From a virus, in UHGV virus genome UHGV-1351772: 64,000 nt of DNA; one strand, 5' to 3'. The stretch's first letter is position 1, and every line of letters starts with the position of its first letter. This document shows, piece after piece, positions 1,100-64,000 of the stretch. Under the pieces are notes generated by a model, which saw only the letters and a list, made by a program, of their open reading frames with translations, was not told the DNA's origin and searched no databases. The position numbers and the translations under genes were made by a program.

Positions 1100-1660
1100 T
1101 CATGTAGCCGGGTTTTCTTCAACTGAGTCGTCATCTGGAACCTCAAAGGTAAGAACAGCATCATCACCAATACAGAAGATCGCATCATCTTCGTTTGCTA
1201 ATGCTCGTTCTGTTGTATCGAATAACGTTACCATAAACGCATTCATCCACGCAGGAGAATCGTCAGCAACGTTAACAGCAATGGGTTCGTTACCTAAGGT
1301 GATATCTGCAGCACGTAAATCTTCGGGTTGTAAGTTCGTTCCGCAGAATTCATTTACAACACCTAAAATGTCACGAAGGTTGTCTTCAGTACCGTCTAAC
1401 GAAATCAAAATAGGTTCAGACGCTAACACTTCGTCCGCATCCAAACGGTCGTAATAAACAACCACAGAAGCACCATCAGGTTTCCTGATTTTTGTAATCT
1501 CTGTCAGTGTGTTACGACGCGAAGTGGTCGGGGACGGGTTTGCCATAGTGTTGCTAATACGGATTTCGTTTAGAGACAACCGTGAACCGTTATCGTGGTT
1601 GATTAAAGCGACCACCAATTCGGCTGAGGCCAGACTTAAATCAGGTACGTAAGTAGTCAC
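1100..1660 (-). CDS. hypothetical protein, acidic C-terminus
   Basis: Track ORF 1100..1693 starts inside terminator hairpin; in-frame GTG at 1660 preceded by GGGAGG 5 nt upstream. Confidence 0.35.
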   Translation of the reverse strand: MTTYVPDLSLASAELVVALINHDNGSRLSLNEIRISNTMANPSPTTSRRNTLTEITKIRKPDGASVVVYYDRLDADEVLASEPILISLDGTEDNLRDILGVVNEFCGTNLQPEDLRAADITLGNEPIAVNVADDSPAWMNAFMVTLFDTTERALANEDDAIFCIGDDAVLTFEVPDDDSVEENPAT

Positions 1661-1692
1661 TAAAACCTCCCAGATCAAAAAAAAATAAAACA

Positions 1693-1720
1693 CCTACCGC
1701 CCATAGAATCGGGCGGTAGG
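1693..1720 (-). terminator. rho-independent terminator
   Basis: 10 bp stem cctaccgccc/gggcggtagg, 8 nt loop, U-run on minus strand (plus 1671-1690 A-run). Confidence 0.6.
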
Positions 1721-1746: not shown

Positions 1747-2121
1747 TCAGACCGTTAGTTCTCCACATAACTCAACGTCGATACCGAACGTCATTCCCAC
1801 TTCTTGAAGTTTGTTCGCCAGTAGGTGACGATGACAAAACTTACCTGCGGGACAATAGCACATCAAAACCAAATCTTCGTGTCTAAGCAACGAGACCAAC
1901 GTTTCGGCATCGGTATCTAACAGTCGTTCGAGTTTGTACAAATACTTTACCGTGTATTCACGCTCAGCGGCAGCGTCTTGGGCAGAATTTTTATACGCCA
2001 TTAAGAAATCCCAGTCGGGGGCGAGTTCCTTTCGCCCTGACTTCACAGTGATATCCACTGCGTGAAATCCTTTTTGCTTAGCTAACCGCCACTTAGCGAG
2101 TTGTAGCGTCCAGATACGCAT
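1747..2121 (-). CDS. conserved hypothetical protein, DUF488-like (CYCPAGKFCHRH motif)
   Basis: ORF track; motif resemblance recalled from memory only. Confidence 0.4.
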   Translation of the reverse strand: MRIWTLQLAKWRLAKQKGFHAVDITVKSGRKELAPDWDFLMAYKNSAQDAAAEREYTVKYLYKLERLLDTDAETLVSLLRHEDLVLMCYCPAGKFCHRHLLANKLQEVGMTFGIDVELCGELTV

Positions 2122-5074: not shown

Positions 5075-5120
5075 CTCTATATTCTCCTAATCATTAAAAT
5101 AGCCGCAGTTGTAAAAAAGA

Positions 5121-8012: not shown

Positions 8013-8786
8013 TTAAAAGATAAAATGGCCAGTTAATGCTTCTACTTCAACACCAGGCATCGCCGGTGGTGCTGAGTATGGAAAAGTAAGACGCACGGCT
8101 GCACCCTTTAAATACGCAATACGGCAGTATGTGGTTAAGAGTGCATTCCCGTAAGTACAGTCGTTATAGAAGAAACCTTCGGTGGCAAACGTCTTTTCGT
8201 TGATTTTCGAATAGACTAAGATACCTTCAACTTTACCGTCTTTACGACAGCACAGCCCTTCGGCAGCCCCAATCGCTAACAAACCCAGGCAGTACGTATC
8301 CAAGCTGACATTAGCCACCTTAGGAATCGTAAACGTTTCTTCTAATGTTAGAGATTCAATATCATCTACATCAGGTAAATCGGTACGAACTTCAGGTTTT
8401 TCAGTAAACGTCAGCTCATAGTCGATAGACGTCGGTTGCATACTCAAAAACGCCATTAACTGATCGCGACGTTTTAGGTCGTTGGCAGGGTAGGTGATAT
8501 CAAACACCTCCACACTTAACAAACGTTTGAGTTGTGCGAAATTGATGTTCTTCTTCGCAAACACAACGATTGCTGACATGTAGAAAATCTTACCGTCAGT
8601 GCGGCCGGAGAAGATTCCTTGTAGCTGATTCGTGTTCGAAAGAATAATAAAGGTCGGATCTTCAGATTCGCGAATGACGTCCTTTTCCAGTAACCCTTTC
8701 CGTACACGGGTTAGCGAAACCATTTTGCCATCCACACCAATTGCTAAATGGTCATTACGATAATCGTGGATATCCACTATGCGCAT
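8013..8786 (-). CDS. hypothetical protein, translationally coupled to dam
   Basis: ORF track; ATGA overlap with dam stop at 8786. Confidence 0.45.
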   Translation of the reverse strand: MRIVDIHDYRNDHLAIGVDGKMVSLTRVRKGLLEKDVIRESEDPTFIILSNTNQLQGIFSGRTDGKIFYMSAIVVFAKKNINFAQLKRLLSVEVFDITYPANDLKRRDQLMAFLSMQPTSIDYELTFTEKPEVRTDLPDVDDIESLTLEETFTIPKVANVSLDTYCLGLLAIGAAEGLCCRKDGKVEGILVYSKINEKTFATEGFFYNDCTYGNALLTTYCRIAYLKGAAVRLTFPYSAPPAMPGVEVEALTGHFIF

Positions 8787-9601
8787 TAGAGCACTCCCAG
8801 TAATTCAGTCACCGTTTTCCGAGCGGCACCAGACGCACCCATATAGCGACCAACCTCAATACTGCGCCACTCAAAACCGTAATAAATTTCTCGGGTGAGT
8901 AGGGTGTCTGCATTTGACAGCACGACGCTGTTGCCACGTTCCACCTGCTGCTGTAGTAACTTGGCTAATTCCCGATGATCCGTTTGTGAGAATTCTTTAC
9001 GGTGGTATTGCGCATGTTTCGCGGTATCCGATAACGGAATATAAGGAGGATCAGCATAAATCACGGCATCCTCAGGTGTCCGCGCTAAGACAGAACGAAA
9101 GTCCTCACAAACAATTTCCAGATACTCAACTTCTGTGCAACGTTTAGCCCAATCCCGAATTTCTTCTAATGGATAATAAACGCCGTTCGGGTAACGTCCA
9201 AACGGAACATTGAACCCACCACTACTGTTATAGCGACACATCCCATTATAACCATGACGCATTAAGTATAAAAACATCGCGGCACGTTCAACCTCGGTCA
9301 TCGTTTTACCGCTATTAAACAGTTCACGACGTTCCATATACTTTACAGTGGCATTACCGTCTAAGAACAACGGTTGCGATGCAGCGATCAGTTCTTCAGG
9401 CTGTTCACGCGCAACACAAAGTAAGCGTATCAAATCGGGGTTAGAATCCGATAGAATATACCGGCTGTAATTCGTATTTAGGAAAACAGACCCTGCGCCC
9501 ACAAACGGTTCTACAAAGGTTGTACGTTTAGGTAAGACCTTCTGTAATTCACCCAAAACGCGTGTTTTCCCACCCATCCATTTAATTATCGGTTTCCGCA
9601 T
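8786..9601 (-). CDS. dam: DNA adenine methyltransferase (Dam family)
   Basis: N-terminus IIKWMGGK...FVEPFVGAGSV (AdoMet site) and DPPY catalytic motif, ~270 aa. Confidence 0.85.
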   Translation of the reverse strand: MRKPIIKWMGGKTRVLGELQKVLPKRTTFVEPFVGAGSVFLNTNYSRYILSDSNPDLIRLLCVAREQPEELIAASQPLFLDGNATVKYMERRELFNSGKTMTEVERAAMFLYLMRHGYNGMCRYNSSGGFNVPFGRYPNGVYYPLEEIRDWAKRCTEVEYLEIVCEDFRSVLARTPEDAVIYADPPYIPLSDTAKHAQYHRKEFSQTDHRELAKLLQQQVERGNSVVLSNADTLLTREIYYGFEWRSIEVGRYMGASGAARKTVTELLGVL

Positions 9602-10580
9602 TATATCCGCCTTGTAACGATGACACTTCGTCGACTAACACCAATTTGACATGATTTTTCTGACGCTCCCAACTGACGACGTTTTCGTCACGCACTAAAA
9701 CAAATTCGTATTCGTAGGGGCGAAATTTAAATAATTCGACGGCCAGGTGCCTGAATGCAGGGTTGTTATTGAAACACCCTATCTCTAATGGTGCCGCTGT
9801 TGTCGATGCAATTTGTAGGGCACGATACAACAAAGTCCGTCCGATACCACGACCCCGATGTGTCTCACTTACCGCAATGGCTTTTAATTCACATTCGTTA
9901 AGATTACGCAATTTAACTTGCACCGCGCCCACAATATCGTTGCCGTCCATCCAAACGTAAGTATGGTGGTTGACATGACGTACTAACTCCACCAACGTTT
10001 CGACTTGTGGCATGATTTGACGTGAGCGACTCACAGGGTCAGCGTTGATGTTTTCAACGACACTCGTACCCAAAAGCAACATAAGCTGTTCGCGTTGTGT
10101 GGCGGTTAACTCTTTATAAAAATCACCGGAGATGTTCTTCACGTTTGTTGGTAGAGCGATATCCAACAACGAGCGTGTACCTAAACGATACGTAGTGTGG
10201 GTGTGTCTAAATCCTAAGTCATTAAGCTCAGCGATTTCTTCTACACCACTGGCGATTCGATTAAGGTACGTAAAACCGGTATAGTCGAGTACCAGTAGCA
10301 GGTTCAGTTTGTTCAAACAACCCGGTACAATTTCATGCATGTACAAGCAGTGTAACGTTGGGTCGCCGTAAATGTGTTTTGTGATGATAAACCCTTGGAT
10401 TGTTTTTCCTTTTTGTAAAGAGAACGTATTCAGTTCACTATTGCACAACGCCTCACGAATCACCGCGCCGTTAGGGCCCGATAAACATGCCTGAAGTTGA
10501 GGGTTGCGAATATCTCTACGTGCTAACCGACCTACTGTTAAATCCGTGGCGGTATGTTTTATAATCTTCATAAAAGCCAT
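9582..10580 (-). CDS. GNAT-family acetyltransferase with ~170 aa N-terminal extension
   Basis: C-terminal half carries acetyl-CoA motif AIAVSETHRGRGIGRTLL; AAGGAG RBS 8 nt upstream of ATG 10580. Confidence 0.55.
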   Translation of the reverse strand: MAFMKIIKHTATDLTVGRLARRDIRNPQLQACLSGPNGAVIREALCNSELNTFSLQKGKTIQGFIITKHIYGDPTLHCLYMHEIVPGCLNKLNLLLVLDYTGFTYLNRIASGVEEIAELNDLGFRHTHTTYRLGTRSLLDIALPTNVKNISGDFYKELTATQREQLMLLLGTSVVENINADPVSRSRQIMPQVETLVELVRHVNHHTYVWMDGNDIVGAVQVKLRNLNECELKAIAVSETHRGRGIGRTLLYRALQIASTTAAPLEIGCFNNNPAFRHLAVELFKFRPYEYEFVLVRDENVVSWERQKNHVKLVLVDEVSSLQGGYNAETDN

Positions 10581-10644
10581 GTTAATTACTCCTTAAAAGG
10601 TCGTCTCAAAACAATACGCTAAAGTTGTAAAAACAAAAAAGAAA

Positions 10645-10662
10645 GGGGAACCGAAGTTCCCC
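10645..10662 (-). terminator. rho-independent terminator
   Basis: ggggaac cgaa gttcccc, preceded on plus by A-run. Confidence 0.6.
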
Positions 10663-10674
10663 AATTATTAAACA

Positions 10675-11346
10675 TCATGCAGAAGGGGCAGAGTTTGTAA
10701 AAGCAAGATTGGGTGTCAAGCCAGCTTTCCCTAATTTTTCATACAGGTAGTTGAAAAATCTGAGATGGGCATCGTAGTGGCCAGCCGCTACTCGCTGGCC
10801 GTAAACTTCTACCAAGTCAGGCGAAAACTTAATATGGCAGTTTTGTCTAGAGAACAAAGGTTGTTGCACCCCACCCTTAATTAAGATGCGATACTTTTTA
10901 CCGTCGTCTGTTACGGCGTGAAGAATATTTGTACTGAAATGGAAATAGATAGAAGGGTTAAAACACAACCAGGTGGCGGCATTGATTAGCAAGTCAGCTA
11001 ACTTAACAGCGATTTTGTCAAGTTCAGGCCCTTCAAACTTATGCATTAACCGCAGAAGAATTTCAGTAATAACCGTGCCTGTAAGTAATTTGTCTCTATT
11101 GAGACCAGGTGCAACCGCCAAAACATCACCATTATAAGTGCAGACAAGTGTGAATAAGTTGAAAGGCTGGTCTTGATAAAGTTCGAAAACCAGGTCAGTA
11201 TACGGGCTAAAAGTTAAGAATTTCACCCCGAGTATTTCATTAACGCAGGGTAAAAGCTCAACTTTCACAGGCGGTTGTGCTTCGTTAACTTTAGTCTCGT
11301 TCTTTACAGTTTCTTCAATTACGGTTTTACCAATTTTCGGTGGCAT
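10675..11346 (-). CDS. hypothetical protein
   Basis: ORF track. Confidence 0.45.
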   Translation of the reverse strand: MPPKIGKTVIEETVKNETKVNEAQPPVKVELLPCVNEILGVKFLTFSPYTDLVFELYQDQPFNLFTLVCTYNGDVLAVAPGLNRDKLLTGTVITEILLRLMHKFEGPELDKIAVKLADLLINAATWLCFNPSIYFHFSTNILHAVTDDGKKYRILIKGGVQQPLFSRQNCHIKFSPDLVEVYGQRVAAGHYDAHLRFFNYLYEKLGKAGLTPNLAFTNSAPSA

Positions 11347-11367
11347 GATAATACTCCTTCAGGTTGA

Positions 11368-11727
11368 TTAGTGCGTTGCGGTGTTAGTGATAAAACGCAC
11401 ATTCTTCGTGGTGCGTTTAATGGACGTGTTTGCAACGTAGTCCAACGCTGATTCTACGTGAACGGTTACTGAGCAACGACCCTTAACGGAATTAAAACTA
11501 ATCTGGTATTTCAGACGAATCGCATCAGCAACTTTCATCATAATCGGCAAACTTAAACGTTCTGAGTGATCGTTCTTAATAGACGAGATAACAGGTTGTG
11601 AAACTTTCGCAAGCTGGGCAAGTTCACGCTGAGTAATGTCTTTTGTGGTCAAATGACGAATTACGTAAGACAAGTGAAGACCGAATTTACGTTTTGCCAG
11701 AACGATGGAATTGTGATTGTAAGCCAT
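11368..11727 (-). CDS. helix-turn-helix DNA-binding protein (XRE-like)
   Basis: ITQRELAQLAKVSQPVISSI HTH-like segment; AAAGGAG RBS. Confidence 0.45.
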   Translation of the reverse strand: MAYNHNSIVLAKRKFGLHLSYVIRHLTTKDITQRELAQLAKVSQPVISSIKNDHSERLSLPIMMKVADAIRLKYQISFNSVKGRCSVTVHVESALDYVANTSIKRTTKNVRFITNTATH

Positions 11728-11776
11728 TGTAAATACTCCTTTAGGTTAACAAGTCGGTGTAAAGAGTTAATCATAA

Positions 11777-11803
11777 CTCTCACCTAAGTAAAATATATCT
11801 GAG
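11777..11803 (-). promoter_or_regulatory. conserved promoter-like motif, copy 2
   Basis: ctctcacctaagtaaaatatatctgag; upstream of HTH gene. Confidence 0.45.
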
Positions 11804-11818
11804 AAAAAATAAAATATA

Positions 11819-11840
11819 GGTACCACCGTTGGGTGGTACC
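11819..11840 (-). terminator. rho-independent terminator
   Basis: ggtaccacc/ggtggtacc stem, U-run on minus strand. Confidence 0.55.
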
Positions 11841-11847
11841 TAAGCGG

Positions 11848-12471
11848 TTAGTTTGCTAAAATGTGCGTAACAATCTCAGCGGCTTTCAAACGGTAATCGT
11901 CATTCTGCGTTACTGGTAATAATGCGTGAAGACAACCACCTTCTGTTAAGATGTGATGCGCGAAACGATAATGGTCGCGTAGGCCATCCCAACATTGATT
12001 GTCCATTAGATACTTAACCGTAAGTACCTCATCGTCCCAATTCTTACCTTGTTCTTCTACACGTTTCTTAAATCGCGCTAACGCTGTTGGGTAATCAACA
12101 TCAGTCCAAACATAAAGGTCGGGTGCGTGGAAATGACGAGTTAGCTTACGTTGGAAAACTACGTCCTTGCCATCTGTCCCCTGATAAACAATCGTTGAAG
12201 GGCAAAAACGATCGAAAATGACGACATCGTACTCGTCAACAACATGGTCTAACGTGTGAAGGAAGTCATCACACATTGCTTCAGCAATTTTTGTTTTCGA
12301 AGCAGACTGTACAACCAAGCTACGTGCACGAATACCCGCCTCGGTTTCAGACGTCGGATGGTTCCGAATACACACTTTTAATCCTGCGGACTCCAACATC
12401 GCTTTTACCATTTTACACAACGTTGATTTCCCAGAAAAATCAGGACCATCAATAGACACGGTCTTAAGCAT
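11848..12471 (-). CDS. thymidylate kinase / dNMP-kinase-like P-loop kinase
   Basis: Walker A GPDFSGKST at N-terminus, ~200 aa. Confidence 0.6.
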   Translation of the reverse strand: MLKTVSIDGPDFSGKSTLCKMVKAMLESAGLKVCIRNHPTSETEAGIRARSLVVQSASKTKIAEAMCDDFLHTLDHVVDEYDVVIFDRFCPSTIVYQGTDGKDVVFQRKLTRHFHAPDLYVWTDVDYPTALARFKKRVEEQGKNWDDEVLTVKYLMDNQCWDGLRDHYRFAHHILTEGGCLHALLPVTQNDDYRLKAAEIVTHILAN

Positions 12472-12502
12472 TATTGTTTTACCTTTACGCGCTTTTAGAT
12501 AA

Positions 12503-12525
12503 AAGGGGTGTAAAAAACACCCCTT
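12503..12525 (-). terminator. hairpin, probable terminator
   Basis: aaggggtg/cacccctt stem with A-rich loop. Confidence 0.4.
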
Positions 12526-12533
12526 AGTTTTAC

Positions 12534-13148
12534 TTACAATTCAAAATATGTGGAAATTAAGCTCTCAAGGTTACGTTCTTCGTACACTTCCTTACTCGTA
12601 GGGTAACCGACGGTATGGTATTTCGCTGTAAAAGAAATGGCCTTGTTTGCAACGACGTACCGGTCATCGATACTCACCTTTTCAGGATGCTTGAGGCTGA
12701 GCGTGACGGTACGTATATGGGTCACCTCAAAATCTTTGATGATAACGCGATCTCTGTGTCGTGAGATAGCAAAATTGCTACTGCCCGCCACGAACTCCTC
12801 ATAACCGCCGACCAATTTAAGAGCTGCTAAACATGCAGTATAAGCGGGATATTTATCAGCCAATAGTTGTTCTTTTGTTACAAAGAGTTTATAGTCTTCC
12901 TCATCGCGAAGGTATCTCAGCAATAATTGGGAACGGAATTTCGACAACAGTCTTTCGTACTGCGATTCCCAGAGTTTTCCATTTTCAGTGAAGAGATGAC
13001 CAACGGTATACTTTAATTTCTCACCTTCATAAATCAAAAGCGAATTTTTCGAGACAAAGCCCGCATTCTTTCTATTTTCGCCAATTTCATTTTCAGCAAC
13101 TTCAACTAAAGTGTAGTTGTTAGGGAGTTCAAAGCGCTTAATTTCCAT
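12534..13148 (-). CDS. hypothetical protein
   Basis: ORF track. Confidence 0.45.
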   Translation of the reverse strand: MEIKRFELPNNYTLVEVAENEIGENRKNAGFVSKNSLLIYEGEKLKYTVGHLFTENGKLWESQYERLLSKFRSQLLLRYLRDEEDYKLFVTKEQLLADKYPAYTACLAALKLVGGYEEFVAGSSNFAISRHRDRVIIKDFEVTHIRTVTLSLKHPEKVSIDDRYVVANKAISFTAKYHTVGYPTSKEVYEERNLESLISTYFEL

Positions 13149-13191
13149 AATTTATCTCTCTTTAAATTGGTGAGTTACCGACTCACTACGG

Positions 13192-13218
13192 TTGTCACAT
13201 TGATAATATCAATCTGTA
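13192..13218 (-). promoter_or_regulatory. promoter-like motif, divergent copy
   Basis: ttgtcacattgataatatcaatctgta; matches consensus at TCAC and TAATAT..ATCTG. Confidence 0.35.
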
Positions 13219-13248
13219 ATAAAATTTAGGGTAAAAAAAAGAAACCCG

Positions 13249-13268
13249 CCCCTACCGTTAAGTAGGGG
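13249..13268 (-). terminator. rho-independent terminator
   Basis: cccctac/gtagggg stem after A-run. Confidence 0.5.
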
Positions 13269-13275
13269 TAAGGTT

Positions 13276-13881
13276 TTATTGGTGATCAACAATCGGACCA
13301 CTCCACACTTCTGACGTTTGTGGTGCGGTGAGGTTAGCAGCCTGTGCAGACGTTACGCACAGCAAGACTAACCCTTGTTTAGCAAGATAGTGTTGCATTC
13401 TTGCTGCCTCCACGGAGGTGTCCACAATAACGAGCTCAGCGCCACGTAGAAGCGTTAGAGCCGCTTGTCCCTCCTGTGGCGTGGTTAAAGCATCACTGTC
13501 GTCCAGAATGCGTTTAAGGCGGTTATACGCCAACCCAGTTACATTACTCCGACCTGCACGAAGATCGACAACCATATTGTTGTATTCCCCCACCACTTGT
13601 TGCGTCGAATTGGGATAAAATCGAAACGCGGCACGGCGGCGTTTACGACGCACCTCAGAAATCGCGCGTTGTAAAACTAGTAAAACGTATTTCGGTGCCG
13701 CTTCGCTATTCGGACGACGCATCTTGGCTAAACGTGCAGCTAAATCCAAAATTTTCGTTAAGGGATAGCGATGTTTAAACCCGTCGCGTTCAATAGTAAC
13801 GCCACGCTTAGGCAACTTGCCCGTTTTGTTGATATACGATACTGTAATCAATAGTAATGAATCGAGAATCATCTCTGACAT
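13276..13881 (-). CDS. hypothetical protein
   Basis: ORF track. Confidence 0.45.
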   Translation of the reverse strand: MSEMILDSLLLITVSYINKTGKLPKRGVTIERDGFKHRYPLTKILDLAARLAKMRRPNSEAAPKYVLLVLQRAISEVRRKRRRAAFRFYPNSTQQVVGEYNNMVVDLRAGRSNVTGLAYNRLKRILDDSDALTTPQEGQAALTLLRGAELVIVDTSVEAARMQHYLAKQGLVLLCVTSAQAANLTAPQTSEVWSGPIVDHQ

Positions 13882-13895
13882 TACAAGGCCCTCTC

Positions 13896-14267
13896 TTAGA
13901 ACCCCTCAAGAACAGCTTTCACAAATTCATAAACTGTGCGTCGGTGTTCTTCAAGCGGATAAACAAACTTAGAATAATCGTTGTTCCAGACAACCGGATA
14001 GAGGTCGCCATCACAACTTAAATAGCTCTTACGAACCATGTAATAATCTAAACCTACACGGAAGTTTAACGACAGACTACCGTGTTTACTACAAACGTGT
14101 AGCTGGAGCGATTTCACACCGTCTTGAGTTGGTGATTCAATCGTTTCCGCATACAATACATCCGAACACTGTTCTATAGCGCTAACGACATCTCTGAGGT
14201 TGTTGTCTGCATCGATGGTCGCTTTTCGGAGAGCGTCGGTGTATTGCTGAAGTTCTCGATAGAACAT
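13896..14267 (-). CDS. hypothetical protein
   Basis: ORF track; start uncertain (overlaps 14174..14806). Confidence 0.35.
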   Translation of the reverse strand: MFYRELQQYTDALRKATIDADNNLRDVVSAIEQCSDVLYAETIESPTQDGVKSLQLHVCSKHGSLSLNFRVGLDYYMVRKSYLSCDGDLYPVVWNNDYSKFVYPLEEHRRTVYEFVKAVLEGF

Positions 14268-14806
14268 CCTGCTAATCTCCTGTCTCTACCGTATGGCAGA
14301 GGAAATGCTTTGTGTTCAAATTCTGCAACGACATACGCAGGATAGAACAAAAGGTATTTATAGAACGTAGACAACGTAACGTTTTTCTGGGTGGCTAAAA
14401 AGTAATTAAGATCGGGGTTGTCTGGAAAAGCAAAATGCAACCCTGTGTATACCTGACCTTTATACTCCCCATTAAAGGGTGTGACTGCACATCGTGGGTG
14501 TGTCGGCTCGACGTGTAACCAACGACTTCTTACGTGATAAACGCCACGGACTGTCGCGTTTCGTGTTTTACCCAAATAACGGCAACGGATATTCTTTTCC
14601 CACGCCGCACGTTGAGTGGGTGAACCCAGAGAAACAAACCGCGTTAAAGCTTCAGGTGTAAAGTAATCAAAAATGCCGGTCGGTAAACACCAACACGCTT
14701 TATCGATTCGTACCACTCTCCAACCAGGACGAAAACCCACAGCGTAACGCTCTACACCAAAAGTATATCTAGACCCGTCATGAAACGGTACTAATCTTGC
14801 AGCCAT
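14174..14806 (-). CDS. hypothetical protein
   Basis: ORF track. Confidence 0.4.
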   Translation of the reverse strand: MAARLVPFHDGSRYTFGVERYAVGFRPGWRVVRIDKACWCLPTGIFDYFTPEALTRFVSLGSPTQRAAWEKNIRCRYLGKTRNATVRGVYHVRSRWLHVEPTHPRCAVTPFNGEYKGQVYTGLHFAFPDNPDLNYFLATQKNVTLSTFYKYLLFYPAYVVAEFEHKAFPLPYGRDRRLAGCSIENFSNTPTLSEKRPSMQTTTSEMSLAL

Positions 14807-14807
14807 T

Positions 14808-15275
14808 TTAGATTTCCTTTATCATTTCCCTGCATTCGGTACGGAATCCCATTTTCTCATACAAGGAGATAGCTTTAACGTTGTTGTCTAACACATCCAG
14901 ACTCATCCAACCACAACCTTTGGACTTTCCGTATTCACGAACTTTGTCCATAAGCGCACGTCCTACCCCTTGAGAACGTGCTTCGGGAATCACATAGTAG
15001 TTCCCAATATAAACAAATGTGTCCTTCGAGCAAGAACCTATTGAGAACGTCATGAAACCCAGAAGTTGTTCGTTGTCATCCACGGCACACGCACAGAGAT
15101 AATCTTGGGGCCAAATCTCTTCTAAGTGTTCAATTGGGTTGAACGTGTCGCGACCGGTTAACTGACTAATACGCACTTTCTCTTCTGCGAACAACATGTT
15201 GTGCAGTTTGAGTACCTGGTCGCCGTATAACTTTCCGTATTTACTGTCGGGTTTGAGAATAATAGTGATACGCAT
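14808..15275 (-). CDS. GNAT-family acetyltransferase
   Basis: VIPEARSQGVGRALMDKV acetyl-CoA-binding motif, 155 aa. Confidence 0.6.
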   Translation of the reverse strand: MRITIILKPDSKYGKLYGDQVLKLHNMLFAEEKVRISQLTGRDTFNPIEHLEEIWPQDYLCACAVDDNEQLLGFMTFSIGSCSKDTFVYIGNYYVIPEARSQGVGRALMDKVREYGKSKGCGWMSLDVLDNNVKAISLYEKMGFRTECREMIKEI

Positions 15276-16408
15276 TATTTAACCTCAATCAGTGACAACC
15301 TGCACCACTCCAGTAACCCTTCCGCAACGCGCACTAACGAGGTAGTAAACGCATCTTCTAAACGCAGTGCGTTTTTATAACGTACGGTAGCGTCGCGTAA
15401 CTCCCGCCCTTCAAGCGACTTAAGTTCCTTACGCATACGCTGAATTTCGTCATAAATTCCTGTATACCCTACACTACGTCGTTTCGCACCACGCTGACGT
15501 AACGCTCGGATAATGTTTCTAACGGCGTCGAGTGCTGAACCGATTTCGTGCAAGTTCAGAGATTTGATTGTGTGGCCAAAATCACCATCGCGAGCAATCG
15601 CCCATTCAATCTTACCGCTGTCGTGTTCAACGACCACCACGTTACCTGGCCACGGATATGCTTTCACCGTTTTAAACGGATCGATAATACCAAACAACCC
15701 TGCGCTTCGTTTAATCGCCCAGTTCGTTGACCGACCCACTTTCTCCAAACCGCTCTCGGTAACTTTCTTGCTCTTACCGATTAACGTACGTGTTTTAACG
15801 GTATACTCGTTGACCATCGCATCCATTGCACTCAGGTTCTTACTGAACTCAATACATGCTTTTACGTTAGGCTTGTCTTCTAAACAAACTTTGGTTGTCC
15901 AACTTCCCGTGTCACAGTCAACCGGTTCTAAAGTGTCCTTGATACCGAGTAAACTTAAACGTGCTTCTAACTTCTGTAGCTTGCGCTCTAACGACGATGC
16001 TTTGGACGTCGCTTCTTTCAGTTCATTAATAACTTCTTTACCGGCGGCTTCCGCGAAGTCGATAAAACGTAAGGCCAATTGCTTAGAATGTTTACCTGCG
16101 AATTTTCCAGACGCTTTGGCTCCCGCCACTGCTGCTTTTCCAGCAACGCGTCCAACTCCCTTAACCGCTCTGCCGGTCGCACGCGCGACCGCTTTACCTA
16201 CCCCTGCGTAAGGCTCGGTGTCCGCAACAAATTGCGCGCGTTCCATCATCGCTGCAGACTCCAACGCAACGTGGACATCATCTAAAGCCCACCGTTTTCG
16301 GATAGCGACAACCGCCGGATAATTGTCTTTAACATTAAGCGATTCTAACTCGACCAAACGATCGTAGTCATCGCAAAGGACTTCTAAATCGGAATCTAAT
16401 GTTGACAT
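15275..16408 (-). CDS. hypothetical protein with Gly/Ala/Lys-rich repeat segment
   Basis: ORF track; GKAVARATGRAVKGVGRVAGKAAVAGAKASGK low-complexity region. Confidence 0.45.
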   Translation of the reverse strand: MSTLDSDLEVLCDDYDRLVELESLNVKDNYPAVVAIRKRWALDDVHVALESAAMMERAQFVADTEPYAGVGKAVARATGRAVKGVGRVAGKAAVAGAKASGKFAGKHSKQLALRFIDFAEAAGKEVINELKEATSKASSLERKLQKLEARLSLLGIKDTLEPVDCDTGSWTTKVCLEDKPNVKACIEFSKNLSAMDAMVNEYTVKTRTLIGKSKKVTESGLEKVGRSTNWAIKRSAGLFGIIDPFKTVKAYPWPGNVVVVEHDSGKIEWAIARDGDFGHTIKSLNLHEIGSALDAVRNIIRALRQRGAKRRSVGYTGIYDEIQRMRKELKSLEGRELRDATVRYKNALRLEDAFTTSLVRVAEGLLEWCRLSLIEVK

Positions 16409-16458
16409 CCTTTACCCCATTTTAAGCTAAAGCGGGGAGAAGCCCGCCCTGACTAACT

Positions 16459-17007
16459 TCATAATAAGCGTAGGTCTTCTAACCACTTAGATGCATCCGT
16501 AACATGATAATAACAAGGGATGTTCAGTGACTGTGCGTAGCGGACACCCATCGCCGTACCCCCTTTTGGATTTCCCTTTTTATCATGCTCAGCGTAATAA
16601 TAGACGGCGTCTACATGATCGTCCAAAGAATCACCGGATACAATATTTAAGTTTCGTCCATGCAACGCCCAAGCTATTTCCGATAGCTTATCAGGATTAG
16701 GGTGAAGCGATGCCACAATCCCACGATAACGGACGTCTTGTGGAATAACGCGAAAATCCACATTCGGATGTAACTTACGTAACCACAACTTACGTTCGTC
16801 AGGCAAATAGCAAATATGTGGACCTGGTTCAGTACGTGCTAACATAAACTGTAATTGGTCTGGTCCTTTGTAACAACCGCCTGACCGCGTTTCGATACTG
16901 TGCTGTTTATTACGAAGAATTTTGAACCCGCGTTGCAACACATCCAACATTTCATGCATCGTATCTTCGGGCGTTTCTCGAGAACCAATAATAGCAATTT
17001 TATACAT
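16459..17007 (-). CDS. SLOG/DprA-like Rossmann-fold protein (putative nucleotide-binding)
   Basis: N-terminal KIAIIGSRE and SGGCYKGPD resemble DprA/SLOG motifs; low certainty. Confidence 0.35.
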   Translation of the reverse strand: MYKIAIIGSRETPEDTMHEMLDVLQRGFKILRNKQHSIETRSGGCYKGPDQLQFMLARTEPGPHICYLPDERKLWLRKLHPNVDFRVIPQDVRYRGIVASLHPNPDKLSEIAWALHGRNLNIVSGDSLDDHVDAVYYYAEHDKKGNPKGGTAMGVRYAQSLNIPCYYHVTDASKWLEDLRLL

Positions 17008-17053
17008 TTGTCACCTCCATACTGAAGTTGTGAAGTGAAAAAAAAAGAAAGCA

Positions 17054-17080
17054 GGAGAGAACCTTTTCAGGGTTCTCTCC
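17054..17080 (-). terminator. rho-independent terminator
   Basis: ggagagaacc/ggttctctcc stem after 10 nt A-run. Confidence 0.6.
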
Positions 17081-17094
17081 TATCGGTGATGTTA

Positions 17095-17757
17095 TCACGC
17101 TTCTAAACCACTTAAAACGACGGTCTCGAGTAACGCTTTGCCCATCCAGACGTCCAACTCACCATCTAAGCCCCCTAAAGGACGTTTATTCAGTTCGTTG
17201 TTGTAATTAAGTCCGTCAAGGGTTTTATTCGTAATAATTTGCCCAATATGAAGCGGTAGAATAAATCGATTTCGTGCGCTATAAATAAACGAATCACATT
17301 CGTAAATTACCACATAGCGCTCGAGATCCTCATCATACTCAACGTGACACTGCGAGCCCGTGTCCCATGCACGCGACAAAACCATACCACGGTCTTGACA
17401 CATCTTCTCCACCGACACTTTCGCGGACTCTGCCCATTTATCGTAATTTTTAGGTTGGCCGTTTTCGAAATCGAACCAATCCAGATACTTACCGGGAATA
17501 TCAAGAAAGTCGTTCAATTGAAGTTTCGTGTAAGATATCATCACCGCGTCGTTAATATCATTGCGGTTAGTTAACTTTACTCGATACCGACCTTCCGGTG
17601 TGGGTGCGCCTATTAAAGAAACATCCACTTTCTCAGCCGAAAGCTTTTTACGTACACTGCCGCTATTACAGTAACTAACGAGGTTGAGTAAGTTCTGTCT
17701 ATGACCAACTTCAAAATCAATTACAAAAGACATACAAACTCCGCGGGGGTTAATCAC
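17095..17757 (-). CDS. hypothetical protein
   Basis: ORF track. Confidence 0.4.
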   Translation of the reverse strand: MINPRGVCMSFVIDFEVGHRQNLLNLVSYCNSGSVRKKLSAEKVDVSLIGAPTPEGRYRVKLTNRNDINDAVMISYTKLQLNDFLDIPGKYLDWFDFENGQPKNYDKWAESAKVSVEKMCQDRGMVLSRAWDTGSQCHVEYDEDLERYVVIYECDSFIYSARNRFILPLHIGQIITNKTLDGLNYNNELNKRPLGGLDGELDVWMGKALLETVVLSGLEA

Positions 17758-18149
17758 TAATACCCGTATAACGGGTACCGTGCGGTGATCTCATCACCAA
17801 CATAGAAAGTTAAACGTTGAACATTAATACTTTTATTTGCGTAGGGTACAGTTTCTAACGTTACCTTTACACTGGCAGAGCAACTACCCGGATCAACAAA
17901 CTGATATGTACGCCGTTTGATGTTTACCAAATAGTAGCCGCCTGCCGGGCACAATTCGGTTTTACCGTAATTTACCGTGGCGAACTCATCGTTTTGAACT
18001 GCAACAACTGGCTGGTCGGTAGATTTAAAAACGACGGGTTTATCGCCCGGCACTGTAGGTTCAAAACGACTAATATCGTGCGGTTTAAATTCCGCGAACG
18101 CGGAAAATGAAAGTAACGTTAGAAATAGGGTAATGACAGTTCGTTTCAT
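17757..18149 (-). CDS. secreted/periplasmic hypothetical protein
   Basis: N-terminal signal peptide MKRTVITLFLTLLSFSAFA. Confidence 0.45.
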   Translation of the reverse strand: MKRTVITLFLTLLSFSAFAEFKPHDISRFEPTVPGDKPVVFKSTDQPVVAVQNDEFATVNYGKTELCPAGGYYLVNIKRRTYQFVDPGSCSASVKVTLETVPYANKSINVQRLTFYVGDEITARYPLYGY

Positions 18150-18625
18150 CGGTCTACCTCATCAAGATGATCGCGTAGCCATGGCATCGACTCTAAGCGC
18201 GGAATCATATTCCGTGTGTTCGGCGAAAACCATAGCGCTTCACGATATTTCTTTTTGAAACGTTCCCAGTGATACGAGAAAGGTTTGGGTGTAAAACCGC
18301 GCTCTTTTAGCACCTCCTCCCAAACCAAGTCTTTAATAAAATCGTCCACTAAAATTAATACCAACACTTTCCATTTACTGCGTCGGTAGTGCCGTGTAAA
18401 AGATTTGCGGAGATCAGAAAAGTCCTCTCGACGACGAGAACGTACTGCTGGAGTTGCCTTCTCTTTAAATTGCGAACAAGGATTATGTTGTAGTATCGTT
18501 ACAGGAACTCCCCGAACACGGCCTGTACGTAAATCAACCTCGTGTGCGGGGATAACTTCAACGCAACGTAACACTTTTGCTTTATTGCCTTCCAAGCACC
18601 GCGTCTCATATTCGACACGAATCAT
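18146..18625 (-). CDS. hypothetical basic protein
   Basis: ORF track. Confidence 0.4.
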   Translation of the reverse strand: MIRVEYETRCLEGNKAKVLRCVEVIPAHEVDLRTGRVRGVPVTILQHNPCSQFKEKATPAVRSRRREDFSDLRKSFTRHYRRSKWKVLVLILVDDFIKDLVWEEVLKERGFTPKPFSYHWERFKKKYREALWFSPNTRNMIPRLESMPWLRDHLDEVDR

Positions 18626-18644
18626 TTTGGGCTCTCAACTGTTT

Positions 18645-19121
18645 CTAATAAATCTTATCCGCAACAGAGAGAAAGATGGGGGTGTTTTCAATAAAATCCA
18701 CCAAATATCCTTCTTCCGGCGGGGCGTATGACGAATCAACGTTACTGTTCGTCATACGAAAATACCGACGGGAGTCACTGGCAATAAACCATCGGTCTAT
18801 TTGGAAGCCTTTTTTGGAAAAGAAACACAGTCCGTCAATGTTTGAGGGATGCACACGACACATCACCATTTGACGATCTGAATTAAGTTGAACGTATTTC
18901 AGTAAAAAGGAACCTACACCGCTACGGCGAGAACCTTCGGCCACTACCAGATAGATAAGATTCCCCGGCTCCCAGATTGCAACCCCATGTGTAATATCAT
19001 CTTCAACGGCCAACGTGATTCTAACTGGCGTTTCCCGAATCGAATTTAAGTCTTTGACGTATTCACGTAATTCAGGAAATTTAGCGGAAATTTTGTCTTC
19101 GGTAATATCTAACTGCTGCAT
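18645..19121 (-). CDS. GNAT-family acetyltransferase
   Basis: VVAEGSRRSGVGSFLLKYV motif. Confidence 0.55.
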   Translation of the reverse strand: MQQLDITEDKISAKFPELREYVKDLNSIRETPVRITLAVEDDITHGVAIWEPGNLIYLVVAEGSRRSGVGSFLLKYVQLNSDRQMVMCRVHPSNIDGLCFFSKKGFQIDRWFIASDSRRYFRMTNSNVDSSYAPPEEGYLVDFIENTPIFLSVADKIY

Positions 19122-19774
19122 TATTGTTCCCCTATCGATAAAACGTTTTTAACAAATTCATCCCACGTGGTGTTCCCACCAGAAGTAAATAAACTGCTAA
19201 GTGGAACGTTTCGATGCTGTGGAATAATCGCATCGAGCTTCGTTACTGGAACTTCGCTCCATAAAGCCCAACCGTACAACCCTTCCACCGTTTTTCTCTC
19301 ACCTCGTAGGGATGGCACCCACCAGGTAAACTGTATGAATCTTTTACCACGACAGATTTTAAGGCTGGTAGTAAAACCGTGGTCTAACATCCGAACGTCG
19401 TCAAACTTACAATTAATCGAGAAAAGACCATAACGGGCAAGCAATCTCCTTATCTGTAACATTAGGTCGTTTTGGTATTTGTTCAGTGTGACAGTGTCTA
19501 CAAAAACCTGTCCCTTCCCGACCCCAAACCCTTTCTTTTCTAAATGCTCCGCCATTAAGGCAGACGTACTCCCCTCTACACCCGGACAATCTAGACTGCC
19601 GGATAAAGGTACTGCACGATAATAGCGATGGAGCGTCTCTTGAAAAGCCGCCGTAACAATTTTTTCCTCTTTAACGAAATCAACAATTTCCCCATTGGAG
19701 GTGACCAACGGTCCAACCTTCAGGTCCTGAATAGGTATCAGTAACGTTCTGGTCATTAAGCGTAATGGTTCCAC
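19121..19774 (-). CDS. hypothetical protein
   Basis: GTG 19774 with AGGAG 7 nt upstream preferred over track start 19801. Confidence 0.4.
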   Translation of the reverse strand: MEPLRLMTRTLLIPIQDLKVGPLVTSNGEIVDFVKEEKIVTAAFQETLHRYYRAVPLSGSLDCPGVEGSTSALMAEHLEKKGFGVGKGQVFVDTVTLNKYQNDLMLQIRRLLARYGLFSINCKFDDVRMLDHGFTTSLKICRGKRFIQFTWWVPSLRGERKTVEGLYGWALWSEVPVTKLDAIIPQHRNVPLSSLFTSGGNTTWDEFVKNVLSIGEQ

Positions 19775-19834
19775 AATAGCACTCCTTCTTTTAAGTCTCA
19801 CAGTATGTTTAAAAATTGTAAAAATAAAAAGAAG

Positions 19835-19860
19835 TAACCTCTACCCGAAGGTAGAGGTTA
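19835..19860 (-). terminator. rho-independent terminator
   Basis: taacctctacc cgaa ggtagaggtta, A-run upstream on plus. Confidence 0.65.
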
Positions 19861-37540: not shown

Positions 37541-37599
37541 TTTTCATTACCTTTCGTAATGTTGTAAAAACGTCAACAACTTTATGTGTTGACACCGTA

Positions 37600-56603: not shown

Positions 56604-58274
56604 TTAATCAATCAATTTATTGAACTTCCCACCTTTCACAAGTGGGTTGGACTTGGCACGCTTCAACACCGTTGCCATAGACCCTGCGGCCTTGCACCAC
56701 ATGTTAATCATGTTTGCACTGTGCGCAACAGAATCCCAGACATTGCGGTCAGGGTTTAACACCATCATCGTGGTCAGCTCACGACCGTGAAGGTTAAAGT
56801 TTTCCCCTCGCGTCACTTGGTCTTTAAACGCCTGTTCCATCGCCTGCCATTTCTGACTGTCGACGCCAGAACGTGATTGGCGTGCCATCTCTTTCAAGGT
56901 TTTTACAACCTGATCGACACGTTTCTCCAACACCTTATACTTGTCTAGCGCAGTATTCGCTACGCCATCAGAGATACCACTACGTGCCAGTGTAATCAGA
57001 CATGCCAACAGCTCACGGTAATCCCCGTTACTTAAGCTCAACTCCTGGCGCATCATCTCCAGGTTTGTTGTGGAGCCAAAGAAAGAGTTAGCACCGATTG
57101 ATGCAATCATCCAACCGTTGTCTAATTCACGTGTGGTATAACCGAGAAGCTCAACCTTGTCTTTTACACGCAAAATTGGACCAGGACTACCTTTCTGTCG
57201 TCCAAATTCCGTGGCAGTATATTCAATTCGGCCATTGATCTCGCCTAACGCACGAACCAGATGCACAGCGGCGACTTGGTTCTCTTGCGATGTGCCTACC
57301 TTCGGATTATTCGACAGGTAATACGTTTTGATGTCTTTCAGCGACTGGTCTAAGTCCTGAAGCGCACCGGCAAAACTGTCAAGAATCGTGCTCATTAAGT
57401 TGAACTGAATATCTGACGGAATGTTCACCCCAGCACGTTTCACATCAGGCGGCAAACCGTTATAGACTTCCTCAGCAACCCCGAAGTCAAATACACCGTA
57501 ACCGATGTTCGTCCGAAGCAGCGTATCGAGCAGATCCTGAATAACCTGCAGCTCATTCTGCCGACGTTTAAGATGGTTCTTAAACGTATCGATAAACGGT
57601 GATTTACCTAACGCAGCGGCGAGTTTATTTAGAAACTCTTCAGCTTCCATGTTCACGAAAACGTCGTCAGCCAGCGAAAGAGATAACTCCAGGTTGCTTA
57701 ACTCGCTGTCTTTCAAACCTTTTGACAGTACCAGATAAACTTCTTTCAGTACGGTTGTTTTCAGGCGCTCTGTGAAAGGAACATCGGCCAACTTCTCTTC
57801 CAGTTTCTCGCGATAGTCGTTCCCGTCAATGTTCGCAGCACCTGCAAAAGGAACGGCGTTGCTGATAATCCAACTGAGGATTTTCATTATCCCCATCATC
57901 ACCATCACGATGAGGCTAATCTTACCAAAATTAGCGTAAGACTCTAATGCCACCACCGTTTCTTTCTGGTGTGTTTTGGAATAATTCGACGTCAGGACAC
58001 TTTGTACAGCCTTTGGGATCGTACCAGGACGCAACGATTCAGTCGCTACAGCAACATCACGGTTCAACCCTGCTTTACGTATTTCCCGTAAGATCGCTTC
58101 AATCTGCGCGATAAGGCGAGAGCCGTAAATCAGGTCTGCTTCATTACGTTGCATGTAGAGATTGAGTTGGCTAACAGAATCGATGCGTTCTTCCATGCGC
58201 TGTTCTAACAGTGCAGGAAGTTCATCGAGTTTCCATTGCGGTTGCGCAATGTTTGCTGTCATCTCCATACTCAT
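56604..58274 (-). CDS. membrane-associated hypothetical protein
   Basis: Internal ATG 58274 (ATGA overlap with upstream stop); hydrophobic segment ISLIVMVMMGIMKILSWIISNAVPFAGAA. Confidence 0.4.
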   Translation of the reverse strand: MSMEMTANIAQPQWKLDELPALLEQRMEERIDSVSQLNLYMQRNEADLIYGSRLIAQIEAILREIRKAGLNRDVAVATESLRPGTIPKAVQSVLTSNYSKTHQKETVVALESYANFGKISLIVMVMMGIMKILSWIISNAVPFAGAANIDGNDYREKLEEKLADVPFTERLKTTVLKEVYLVLSKGLKDSELSNLELSLSLADDVFVNMEAEEFLNKLAAALGKSPFIDTFKNHLKRRQNELQVIQDLLDTLLRTNIGYGVFDFGVAEEVYNGLPPDVKRAGVNIPSDIQFNLMSTILDSFAGALQDLDQSLKDIKTYYLSNNPKVGTSQENQVAAVHLVRALGEINGRIEYTATEFGRQKGSPGPILRVKDKVELLGYTTRELDNGWMIASIGANSFFGSTTNLEMMRQELSLSNGDYRELLACLITLARSGISDGVANTALDKYKVLEKRVDQVVKTLKEMARQSRSGVDSQKWQAMEQAFKDQVTRGENFNLHGRELTTMMVLNPDRNVWDSVAHSANMINMWCKAAGSMATVLKRAKSNPLVKGGKFNKLID

Positions 58275-63787: not shown

Positions 63788-64000
63788 CGTGCTCTGCCTC
63801 CTCAACCTGATAAATCAGCCGTAGGCTTTTTAATGCAGGTTGTAAAACAGTAATGGGTTGTAACCCATCATTATTAAGTTTCTCTAAGTTCGTCGAAAGA
63901 TCGGCATAGGCGTCATCGAAGTCATCGTTATCGATAATCGAAAGCCCTACCGTGTACATCTCGAGCAATTCTGTTTCGCTATAATCCTCGACGTCAAACA
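63774..64000 (-). CDS. acidic hypothetical protein, C-terminal part (gene starts beyond window end)
   Basis: Frame remains open to position 64000; track start 63968 is TTG. Confidence 0.3.
   Translation of the reverse strand, partial: FDVEDYSETELLEMYTVGLSIIDNDDFDDAYADLSTNLEKLNNDGLQPITVLQPALKSLRLIYQVEEAEHDDEV

Follow-up and report, generated by a model that had tools for sequence, protein, structure and literature searches.

Why should a bacteriophage carry three different acetyltransferase genes within 10 kb of its genome, and what would each of them do? The question is raised by a stretch of 64,000 nucleotides from the virus genome UHGV-1351772 (hereafter the window), in which a preliminary description had pointed to three open reading frames (ORFs), here called G1, G2 and G3, each with an acetyl-CoA-binding motif of the GNAT type. 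We find that all three belong to the GNAT superfamily and to orthologous groups specific to phages, and that together they are the standard, already-annotated complement of jumbo phages resembling Salmonella phage SPN3US; the window itself, judged by the proteins it encodes, is part of an undescribed relative of SPN3US with a genome of about 225 kb. The explanation that we favor, with somewhat better than even confidence, is that three unrelated GNATs have been inherited vertically within a conserved block, are expressed from separate units, and do three different jobs: G2 on amines after delivery from the head, G3 on a specific acceptor in the infected cell, and G1 alongside a DNA methylase.

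The three reading frames are present where the preliminary description placed them (Table 1), and each contains a motif A sequence (R-x-x-G-x-G): RGRGIG at residues 242-247 of G1, RSQGVG at residues 100-105 of G2 and RRSGVG at residues 65-70 of G3, which in the predicted models of G1 and G2 lies between a strand and a helix. Because the bare motif is not specific – the pattern [QR]xxGx[GA] has 14 matches in 12 of the 289 ORFs of the window – the evidence for GNAT identity rests on profiles. G1 matches Pfam Acetyltransf_1 (cut-off 20.7 bits) with 48.1 bits (E 1.7e-12), over residues 198-280 only, and G2 matches the same family with 70.9 bits (E 1.4e-19). G3 stays under the Pfam cut-offs (Acetyltransf_7, 22.9 versus 27 bits); it matches PHROG 7861, annotated as 'acetyltransferase', at E 1.7e-70 and the structure PDB 7DQG at 3.4e-61, and the profile of its family matches the GNAT structures YjaB, smu.2055 and Ard1. 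The GNAT assignments thus withstand profile searches, through Pfam for G1 and G2 and through PHROG 7861 and 7DQG for G3. A GNAT profile hidden Markov model (HMM) run against all 289 ORFs matches only G1, G2 and G3 (E 1.9e-51, 7.1e-7 and 6.4e-5), the next ORF being at 0.077, and the GNAT alpha/beta fold was found. No additional GNATs emerged from Pfam scans of 30 ORFs between 1.1 and 21 kb or from HMM searches of all 289 ORFs, and a 223-residue ORF near G1 (Table 1) gave no GNAT signal. For acetyl-CoA binding and acyl transfer by the trio the evidence comes from orthologues (7DQG, and the phiEaH2 and Caitlin enzymes discussed below), and both activities are predicted on that analogy.

Pairwise BLASTP and phmmer comparisons among G1, G2 and G3 revealed no significant similarity (best E 0.29), and the three are therefore not recent duplicates, in agreement with the preliminary description. 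We also tried, and rejected, membership of the named NCBIfam equivalogs RimI, AAC(6'), STAT, PaiA, MshD, ArsN and PanM, all of which score far below their cut-offs; none of the three could be placed in a named subfamily. The RimI model TIGR01575 (cut-off 86.4 bits), for example, reaches 51.2 bits with G2, 25.9 with G1 and 18.6 with G3, and the best match to any AAC(6') model is that of G2, with 41.7 bits against a 140-bit cut-off.

Relatives of the region were found at the protein level only. Eleven kb of the window yielded no megablast match among the 50,697 phage records of INPHARED, whereas its proteins reveal collinearity with SPN3US and about 60 related phages of Erwinia, Salmonella, Escherichia, Cronobacter and Proteus. 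The counterparts in SPN3US are gp88 for G3, gp94 for an internal head protein, gp95 for G2, gp104 for G1 and gp105 for the methylase Dam, and all three SPN3US GNATs are already labelled acetyltransferase in its annotation. In SPN3US-like phages generally (Seoulvirus, Erskinevirus, Machinavirus, Wellingtonvirus and Derbicusvirus) the order of the trio is the same as in the window, the GNATs belong to the same PHROG families, and the neighbors held in common include a gp87-like protein, the internal head protein, thymidylate kinase, a helix-turn-helix (HTH) protein and Dam. The window differs in the divergence of its proteins, with identities to SPN3US of 30% for G1, 48% for G2 and 60% for G3. 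Because the trio is syntenic across SPN3US and related phage loci, its arrangement is not attributable to chance, and the trio is conserved by selection.

A comparison with 17 full-length related loci from IMG/VR illustrates how the three genes differ in their distribution. G3 is present in all 17, and a strong G2 orthologue is present in 14, in every one of which it abuts the 3' end of the internal-head-protein ORF; the remaining three loci, of Derbicusvirus type, have a weak GNAT match at the G2 position, again after that ORF. G1 is patchier, with tblastn matches in 48 phage records as compared with 62 for G3, and is absent from phiEaH2. We note that in the smaller-genome Derbicusvirus clade (Derbicus, CR5 and Phobos-type loci) no clear G2 orthologue was found; a divergent GNAT-like ORF, scoring 35-37 bits with the G2 profile, lies at about 18.6-19.2 kb in those loci, directly after the internal-head-protein ORF, and the pairing of an internal head protein with a GNAT may predate the G2 family.

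Proteins identical to those of the window are already in NCBI under the name 'GNAT family N-acetyltransferase', in metagenomes and in assemblies of Salmonella enterica (many serovars), E. coli and Shigella isolates, on contigs of 220-229 kb; the exact G3 sequence is present on 167 contigs, and such metagenomes and isolate assemblies are the only known sources of the lineage. The lineage looks like a common, undescribed jumbo phage that travels with enterobacterial isolates. That three GNAT genes should be noteworthy in themselves, as the preliminary description had it, is not borne out, given that the trio is already annotated in SPN3US-like phages and its exact proteins are on record.

G2 is a canonical single-domain GNAT in its AlphaFold model (pLDDT 92). 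Its gene directly follows that of a phiKZ-type internal head protein, with 58.5% identity to the SPN3US counterpart, and the two are joined by a TAATG stop/start overlap. Scheuch et al. (Viruses 2023, PMC10052503) classed SPN3US gp95, the G2 orthologue, as 'Head'; they counted 41 peptide-spectrum matches (PSM) for it in virions and 32 in tailless heads, close to the figures for gp94, and the protein retains an intact N-terminus and lacks a prohead-protease motif (their Tables S2 and S6). In a separate study, candidate phage spermidine N-acetyltransferases were expressed in E. coli BL21 delta-speG, and N-acetylspermidine was made by phiEaH2 YP_007237670 and by Caitlin YP_009292176 (Li et al., PNAS 2023, PMC9992855). 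These two proteins and the SPN3US protein assayed with them are syntenic orthologues of G2, with identities of 50, 46 and 48% for phiEaH2, Caitlin and SPN3US respectively. Our literature search found no paper that links the head location of gp95 with the spermidine N-acetyltransferase activity of its orthologues.

At the sequence level G2 resembles the active phiEaH2 and Caitlin enzymes in its size (154-155 residues), motif A, the invariant Tyr139 and Asp130; they differ in that those enzymes have been assayed, whereas an activity of G2 is predicted from its orthologues, the equally related SPN3US orthologue having been inactive in the same assay. The top PDB sequence match of G2 is human SSAT2 (4.9e-10, 28% identity), and its motif-A arginine, R100, and Y139, which is invariant in the G2 family, align with the motif-A arginine and the general-acid Tyr140 of SSAT. 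With SSAT1/SSAT2 and SpeG/PaiA the GNAT fold is shared, but G2 is not a member of these families. Asp130 lies in a VLDNN loop common to the active phiEaH2 and Caitlin orthologues, and SPN3US, the assay-negative one, has glycine there (VLGNN), as do its closest relatives; with three data points this is a correlation only. An equivalence of Asp130 to SSAT1 Glu152 (the R101A/E152K mutant of which is inactive) was considered and rejected, as an ungapped alignment pairs Asp130 with SSAT2 Asp131. Escherichia phages EC001 and Lh1B and Salmonella phages JN03 and 1252 have two places that match G2, the gene for the head-associated GNAT having apparently been duplicated in tandem behind that for the internal head protein.

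Synteny, the TAATG coupling and the behavior of the SPN3US orthologue suggest that G2 of the window is likewise packaged in the head. It would be co-translated with the internal head protein through the TAATG overlap and enter the prohead, probably riding on the internal head protein since G2 has no propeptide; ejected with the DNA, it would then, as infection begins, N-acetylate polyamines such as spermidine, or a comparable amine, with host acetyl-CoA. Enzymes that travel in the head and are delivered along with the DNA are familiar from the T4 Alt ADP-ribosyltransferase and the virion RNA polymerase of phiKZ and SPN3US, and the SPN3US G2 orthologue is, similarly, a head protein found beside virion RNA polymerase subunits. 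It is unlike these in having no capsid-targeting propeptide or protease site, and in that the ejection of G2 is putative and its proposed substrate is a small molecule. The complete sequence of events, in which G2 is a capsid-delivered small-molecule enzyme that enters the prohead by way of the internal head protein, is ejected with the genome, and acetylates host polyamines in the first minutes of infection, is offered tentatively and is less probable than not in our estimation; if true, G2 would change DNA condensation, translation or the fidelity of nucleases ahead of all phage gene expression.

G3, a single-domain GNAT, is the best conserved member of the trio, with 60% identity to SPN3US and 68% to phiEaH2, and its orthologue SPN3US gp88 is the chain in PDB 7DQG; the title of the corresponding paper announces an acetyl-CoA complex with a novel dimeric arrangement (Ki et al., J Microbiol 2022, cited in PMC12328618). 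The family is a small one (clustering 1.84 billion proteins at 50% gives 20 representatives of it) and is marked by an invariant VEDD cluster (residues 39-42) and an invariant Tyr57. SPN3US gp88 is not listed in the virion tables of that phage (PMC10052503). We infer that G3 is a non-virion, clade-restricted, acetyl-CoA-binding GNAT whose probable job in the infected cell is to acetylate a single, specific cationic acceptor.

G1 is larger, and the prediction for it is a tandem GNAT whose N-terminal domain is degenerate. Its AlphaFold model, built on an alignment of eight sequences (pLDDT 79.4, pTM 0.72), has the GNAT topology twice, in an N-terminal domain that is without motif A and in a C-terminal domain; the GNAT profile match is confined to the C-terminal 135 residues, and the C-terminal domain aligns with a GNAT profile at an hhalign probability of 97.9%. 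Homology between the two domains was sought with hhalign, and the result (E 0.038) is too weak for proof. A Foldseek search of viral models with G1 returned orthologues, N-myristoyltransferases and FemAB. By analogy with other tandem GNATs (MshD, VipF and N-myristoyltransferase), the N-terminal pseudo-domain most likely builds the acceptor site for a catalytic C-terminal domain. G1 does not belong at the sequence level to MshD, VipF, N-myristoyltransferase or FemAB, and shares with MshD only the predicted two-domain architecture (TIGR03448, 19.9 against a 163-bit cut-off); its family is restricted to the SPN3US-like phage clade. In Foldseek the tandem-GNAT model of G1 is also matched, with probability 1.0, by uncharacterized proteins of 214-278 residues from the related phages Kwan, Huxley and phiEaH2.

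The gene for a Dam-type methyltransferase overlaps the 3' end of G1 by 20 nucleotides, so the two are presumably co-transcribed, and the adjacency recurs in SPN3US, Wellington and the IMG/VR loci. SPN3US gp104 is classed as 'Non-virion' (PMC10052503), and G1 would be expressed with Dam, not packaged, and dispensable in some relatives. The gp106-like ORF that follows has no Pfam match and a weak resemblance to a GNAT family (hhalign E 3.4e-4, probability 38%), and may represent another GNAT-fold gene, a degenerate one, beside G1.

The trio sits in three separate units bounded by terminator-like hairpins (Table 1). The G3 unit contains, between its hairpins, the gp87-like gene, G3 and three small ORFs; the G2 unit runs through a DprA-like gene, the internal head protein, G2, gp96-like and gp97-like genes and one more ORF up to its hairpin at 13268-13249; and the G1 unit, which begins after the hairpin at 10662-10645, contains G1, Dam and the gp106-like gene. 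An ORF of 200-230 residues also precedes G3 in SPN3US, Caitlin, CR5, Wellington and Huxley; the gp87-like ORF is evolving fast, with phmmer matches in the closest loci only. As the transcription units, the architectures and the virion status of the three proteins differ, so presumably do their roles, and we regard them as evolutionarily unrelated acetyl-CoA-dependent acyltransferases that would be fixed parts of a conserved gene block.

Several observations weigh against parts of this interpretation. The SPN3US orthologue, YP_009153389 (gp95), gave no N-acetylspermidine in the assay (PMC9992855), and the acetylation of spermidine could thus be a promiscuous by-product of GNAT overexpression and not the function that is conserved. 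The Glu92/Asp93 pair of SSAT is Gly91/Asn92 in the G2 family, G2 scores 25.8 bits with the PaiA model NF053587 (cut-off 250 bits), the SpeG model does not match it, and it is far below every NCBIfam cut-off, that of RimI included. Its packaging in the window phage is extrapolated from SPN3US virions, and a packaged enzyme would be without acetyl-CoA until ejected. In the Chimalliviridae, moreover, the ejected contents are reported to be enclosed at first in a vesicle; the same arrangement here could hinder the access of G2 to its substrates. In G1 the resemblance of the N-terminal domain to a GNAT family is weak (hhalign E 0.009, probability 4%), and its identification depends on a model from a shallow alignment (eight sequences). 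Finally, the position usually occupied by a catalytic tyrosine is phenylalanine in G3 and leucine in the C-terminal domain of G1, so both could be poor catalysts or non-catalytic.

This last possibility can be extended to the proposal that G3, G1 or both are catalytically dead GNAT folds serving as binding or structural modules, like the GNAT-like domain of chimallin, the nuclear-shell protein, which demonstrates non-catalytic reuse of the fold in jumbo phages (PMC9365700). The substituted tyrosines favor it, as does a reported lack of broad activity in the SPN3US enzyme ('very narrow substrate specificity'), but the R-x-x-G-x-G pyrophosphate-binding loop is intact in both proteins, many active GNATs have no such tyrosine, and G3, the most conserved of the trio, has an orthologue that was crystallized with acetyl-CoA according to the title of the structure paper; we consider the proposal improbable. 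A stronger competitor, although still an unlikely one in our judgment, is that all three are protein acetyltransferases, Rac-like or RimI/NAT-like, which modify host or phage proteins for takeover (RNA polymerase, ribosomal proteins and head proteins being candidate targets), the acetylation of spermidine by G2 being a side reaction. Such a role has been predicted for jumbo-phage GNATs (Iyer et al. 2021, PMC7824862), and it would accommodate the retention and packaging of a spermidine-negative gp95; for G1 and G2 RimI heads the NCBIfam matches, and for G3 it comes second of two, N-terminal acetyltransferases (NatD, Ard1 and Naa30/50) are among the structural neighbors of G1 and G2, and the tandem GNAT VipF is a protein-targeting, effector-type enzyme. 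Rac of the phiKMV-like phages (PMC7552054) is a phage GNAT for host takeover, but no sequence relation to the trio was detected, phiKMV-like records being absent from the tblastn matches at E<=1e-5 (an indirect comparison, in which the Rac sequence itself was not included), and the biology of those phages differs. The RimI scores, moreover, are all under the cut-off, the acceptor is not predictable from a GNAT fold, and no protein target has been identified for the trio. Since phiKZ-like phages encode their own RNA polymerases, a takeover of the host RNA polymerase is also less needed.

The preliminary description had envisaged several different targets, among them polyamines, aminoglycosides and defense signals, and these have fared unequally. 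Polyamines retain support from the phiEaH2 and Caitlin orthologues of G2, set against the negative result with SPN3US. A role in defense, in which one or more of the genes, most plausibly the patchy G1, would encode an anti-defense enzyme acetylating an immune protein or signaling molecule, has a precedent in AcrVA5, an anti-CRISPR that acetylates a host immune protein. It would suit the absence of G1 from some close relatives and its position beside Dam, methylation being a classic anti-restriction function, and spermidine depletion could impair CRISPR adaptation and restriction fidelity, as has been speculated (PMC9992855). PADLOC, however, has no match for G1, G2 or G3, we found no evidence for the acetylation of defense signals, and G2 and G3 belong to a conserved core block and not to a variable island; there is little reason to expect that this explanation will prove correct. 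Least credible of all, to the point of being nearly negligible, are enzymes of the antibiotic-resistance type, that is aminoglycoside or streptothricin acetyltransferases: G2 matches AAC(6') and STAT/Sat4 models and structures weakly, with scores that fall far short of the curated cut-offs (the AAC(6') score given above, and 35.3 versus 420 bits), and such a function has no rationale in a lytic jumbo phage. Three unrelated enzymes with separate roles therefore remains the reading that we prefer.

Table 1. Coordinates of the GNAT genes, their motifs and domains, and other features of the window.
Feature	Position	Strand	Details
G1	9582-10580	-	332 residues; SPN3US gp104 orthologue
G1 motif A	9840-9857
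G1 degenerate N-terminal domain	10182-10541	-	about residues 14-133; predicted model
G1 C-terminal GNAT domain	9651-10142	-	about residues 147-310; predicted model
G2	14808-15275	-	155 residues; SPN3US gp95 orthologue
G2 motif A	14961-14978
G3	18645-19121	-	158 residues; SPN3US gp88 orthologue
G3 motif A	18912-18929
Dam-type (D12 class) N6-adenine DNA methyltransferase	8786-9601	-	Pfam MethyltransfD12 7.8e-57
gp106-like ORF	8013-8786	-	257 residues; phmmer to SPN3US gp106 2.5e-14
phiKZ-type internal head protein (SPN3US gp94-like)	15275-16408	-	Pfam phiKZ_IP 32 bits; PHROG 2497 1.5e-73
gp87-like ORF	19121-19801	-	226 residues; PHROG 8034; TAATG overlap onto G3
gp96-like ORF	14174-14806	-	210 residues; PHROG 9255 1.6e-59
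gp97-like gene	13896-14267	-
Last ORF of the G2 unit	13276-13881
130-residue ORF of the G3 unit	17757-18149	-
223-residue ORF	10675-11346
Terminator-like hairpin, upstream of the G3 unit	19835-19860	-	11-bp stem, then T-run
Terminator-like hairpin, between the G3 unit and the DprA-like/internal head protein/G2 unit	17052-17082	-	12-bp stem, then T-run
Terminator-like hairpin, end of the internal head protein/G2 unit	13249-13268	-
Terminator-like hairpin, directly upstream of the G1 unit	10645-10662	-
TTTTACAAC copy	10624-10632	-	upstream of G1
TTTTACAAC copy	5108-5116	-
TTTTACAAC copy	37561-37569	-
TTTTACAAC copy	63839-63847	-
TTTTACAAC copy	13668-13676	-
TTTTACAAC copy	56901-56909	+
DUF488-N3a domain protein	1747-2121	-	4.2e-12
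DUF7941 protein	1100-1693	-	1.1e-18

Some further features of the window were noted in passing. Upstream of G1, after the hairpin, there is a TTTTACAAC motif followed by an AAGGAG Shine-Dalgarno sequence. The motif occurs six times in the window as compared with 1.56 expected, a count reached in none of 100 shuffles, and four of the copies, including the one that precedes G1, are intergenic and lie about 30-70 nucleotides upstream of minus-strand start codons; TTTTACAAC may thus serve the phage as a promoter motif. No enrichment was seen for sigma-70 promoter-like sites (16 versus 22.6 expected). The gp96-like ORF, which overlaps the next gene by 94 nucleotides, went uncalled in the gene prediction for the ENA and Logan contigs; the gp96/gp97 overlap is likewise annotated in SPN3US. 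In the G3 unit a 130-residue ORF has a signal-peptide-like start, MKRTVITLFLTLLSFSAFA, and may encode a secreted or periplasmic phage protein. Proteins with DUF488-N3a and DUF7941 domains are encoded at the window's left end.

The bare observation of three GNAT genes in one phage genome thus carries little weight, as they are the normal complement of these phages, with one orthologue already crystallized and another set assayed. The useful outcome is the synthesis for G2, for which two published data sets that have apparently never been linked point to a head-packaged polyamine acetyltransferase. G3, with a solved orthologue structure and about 20 sequence clusters, and G1, a clade-specific predicted tandem GNAT, are well-defined targets for substrate discovery. 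If the proposal for G2 is confirmed, it would bring an enzyme that modifies metabolites into the small set known to be injected by phages, and would provide a testable handle on the role of the large mass of ejection proteins in giant phages.

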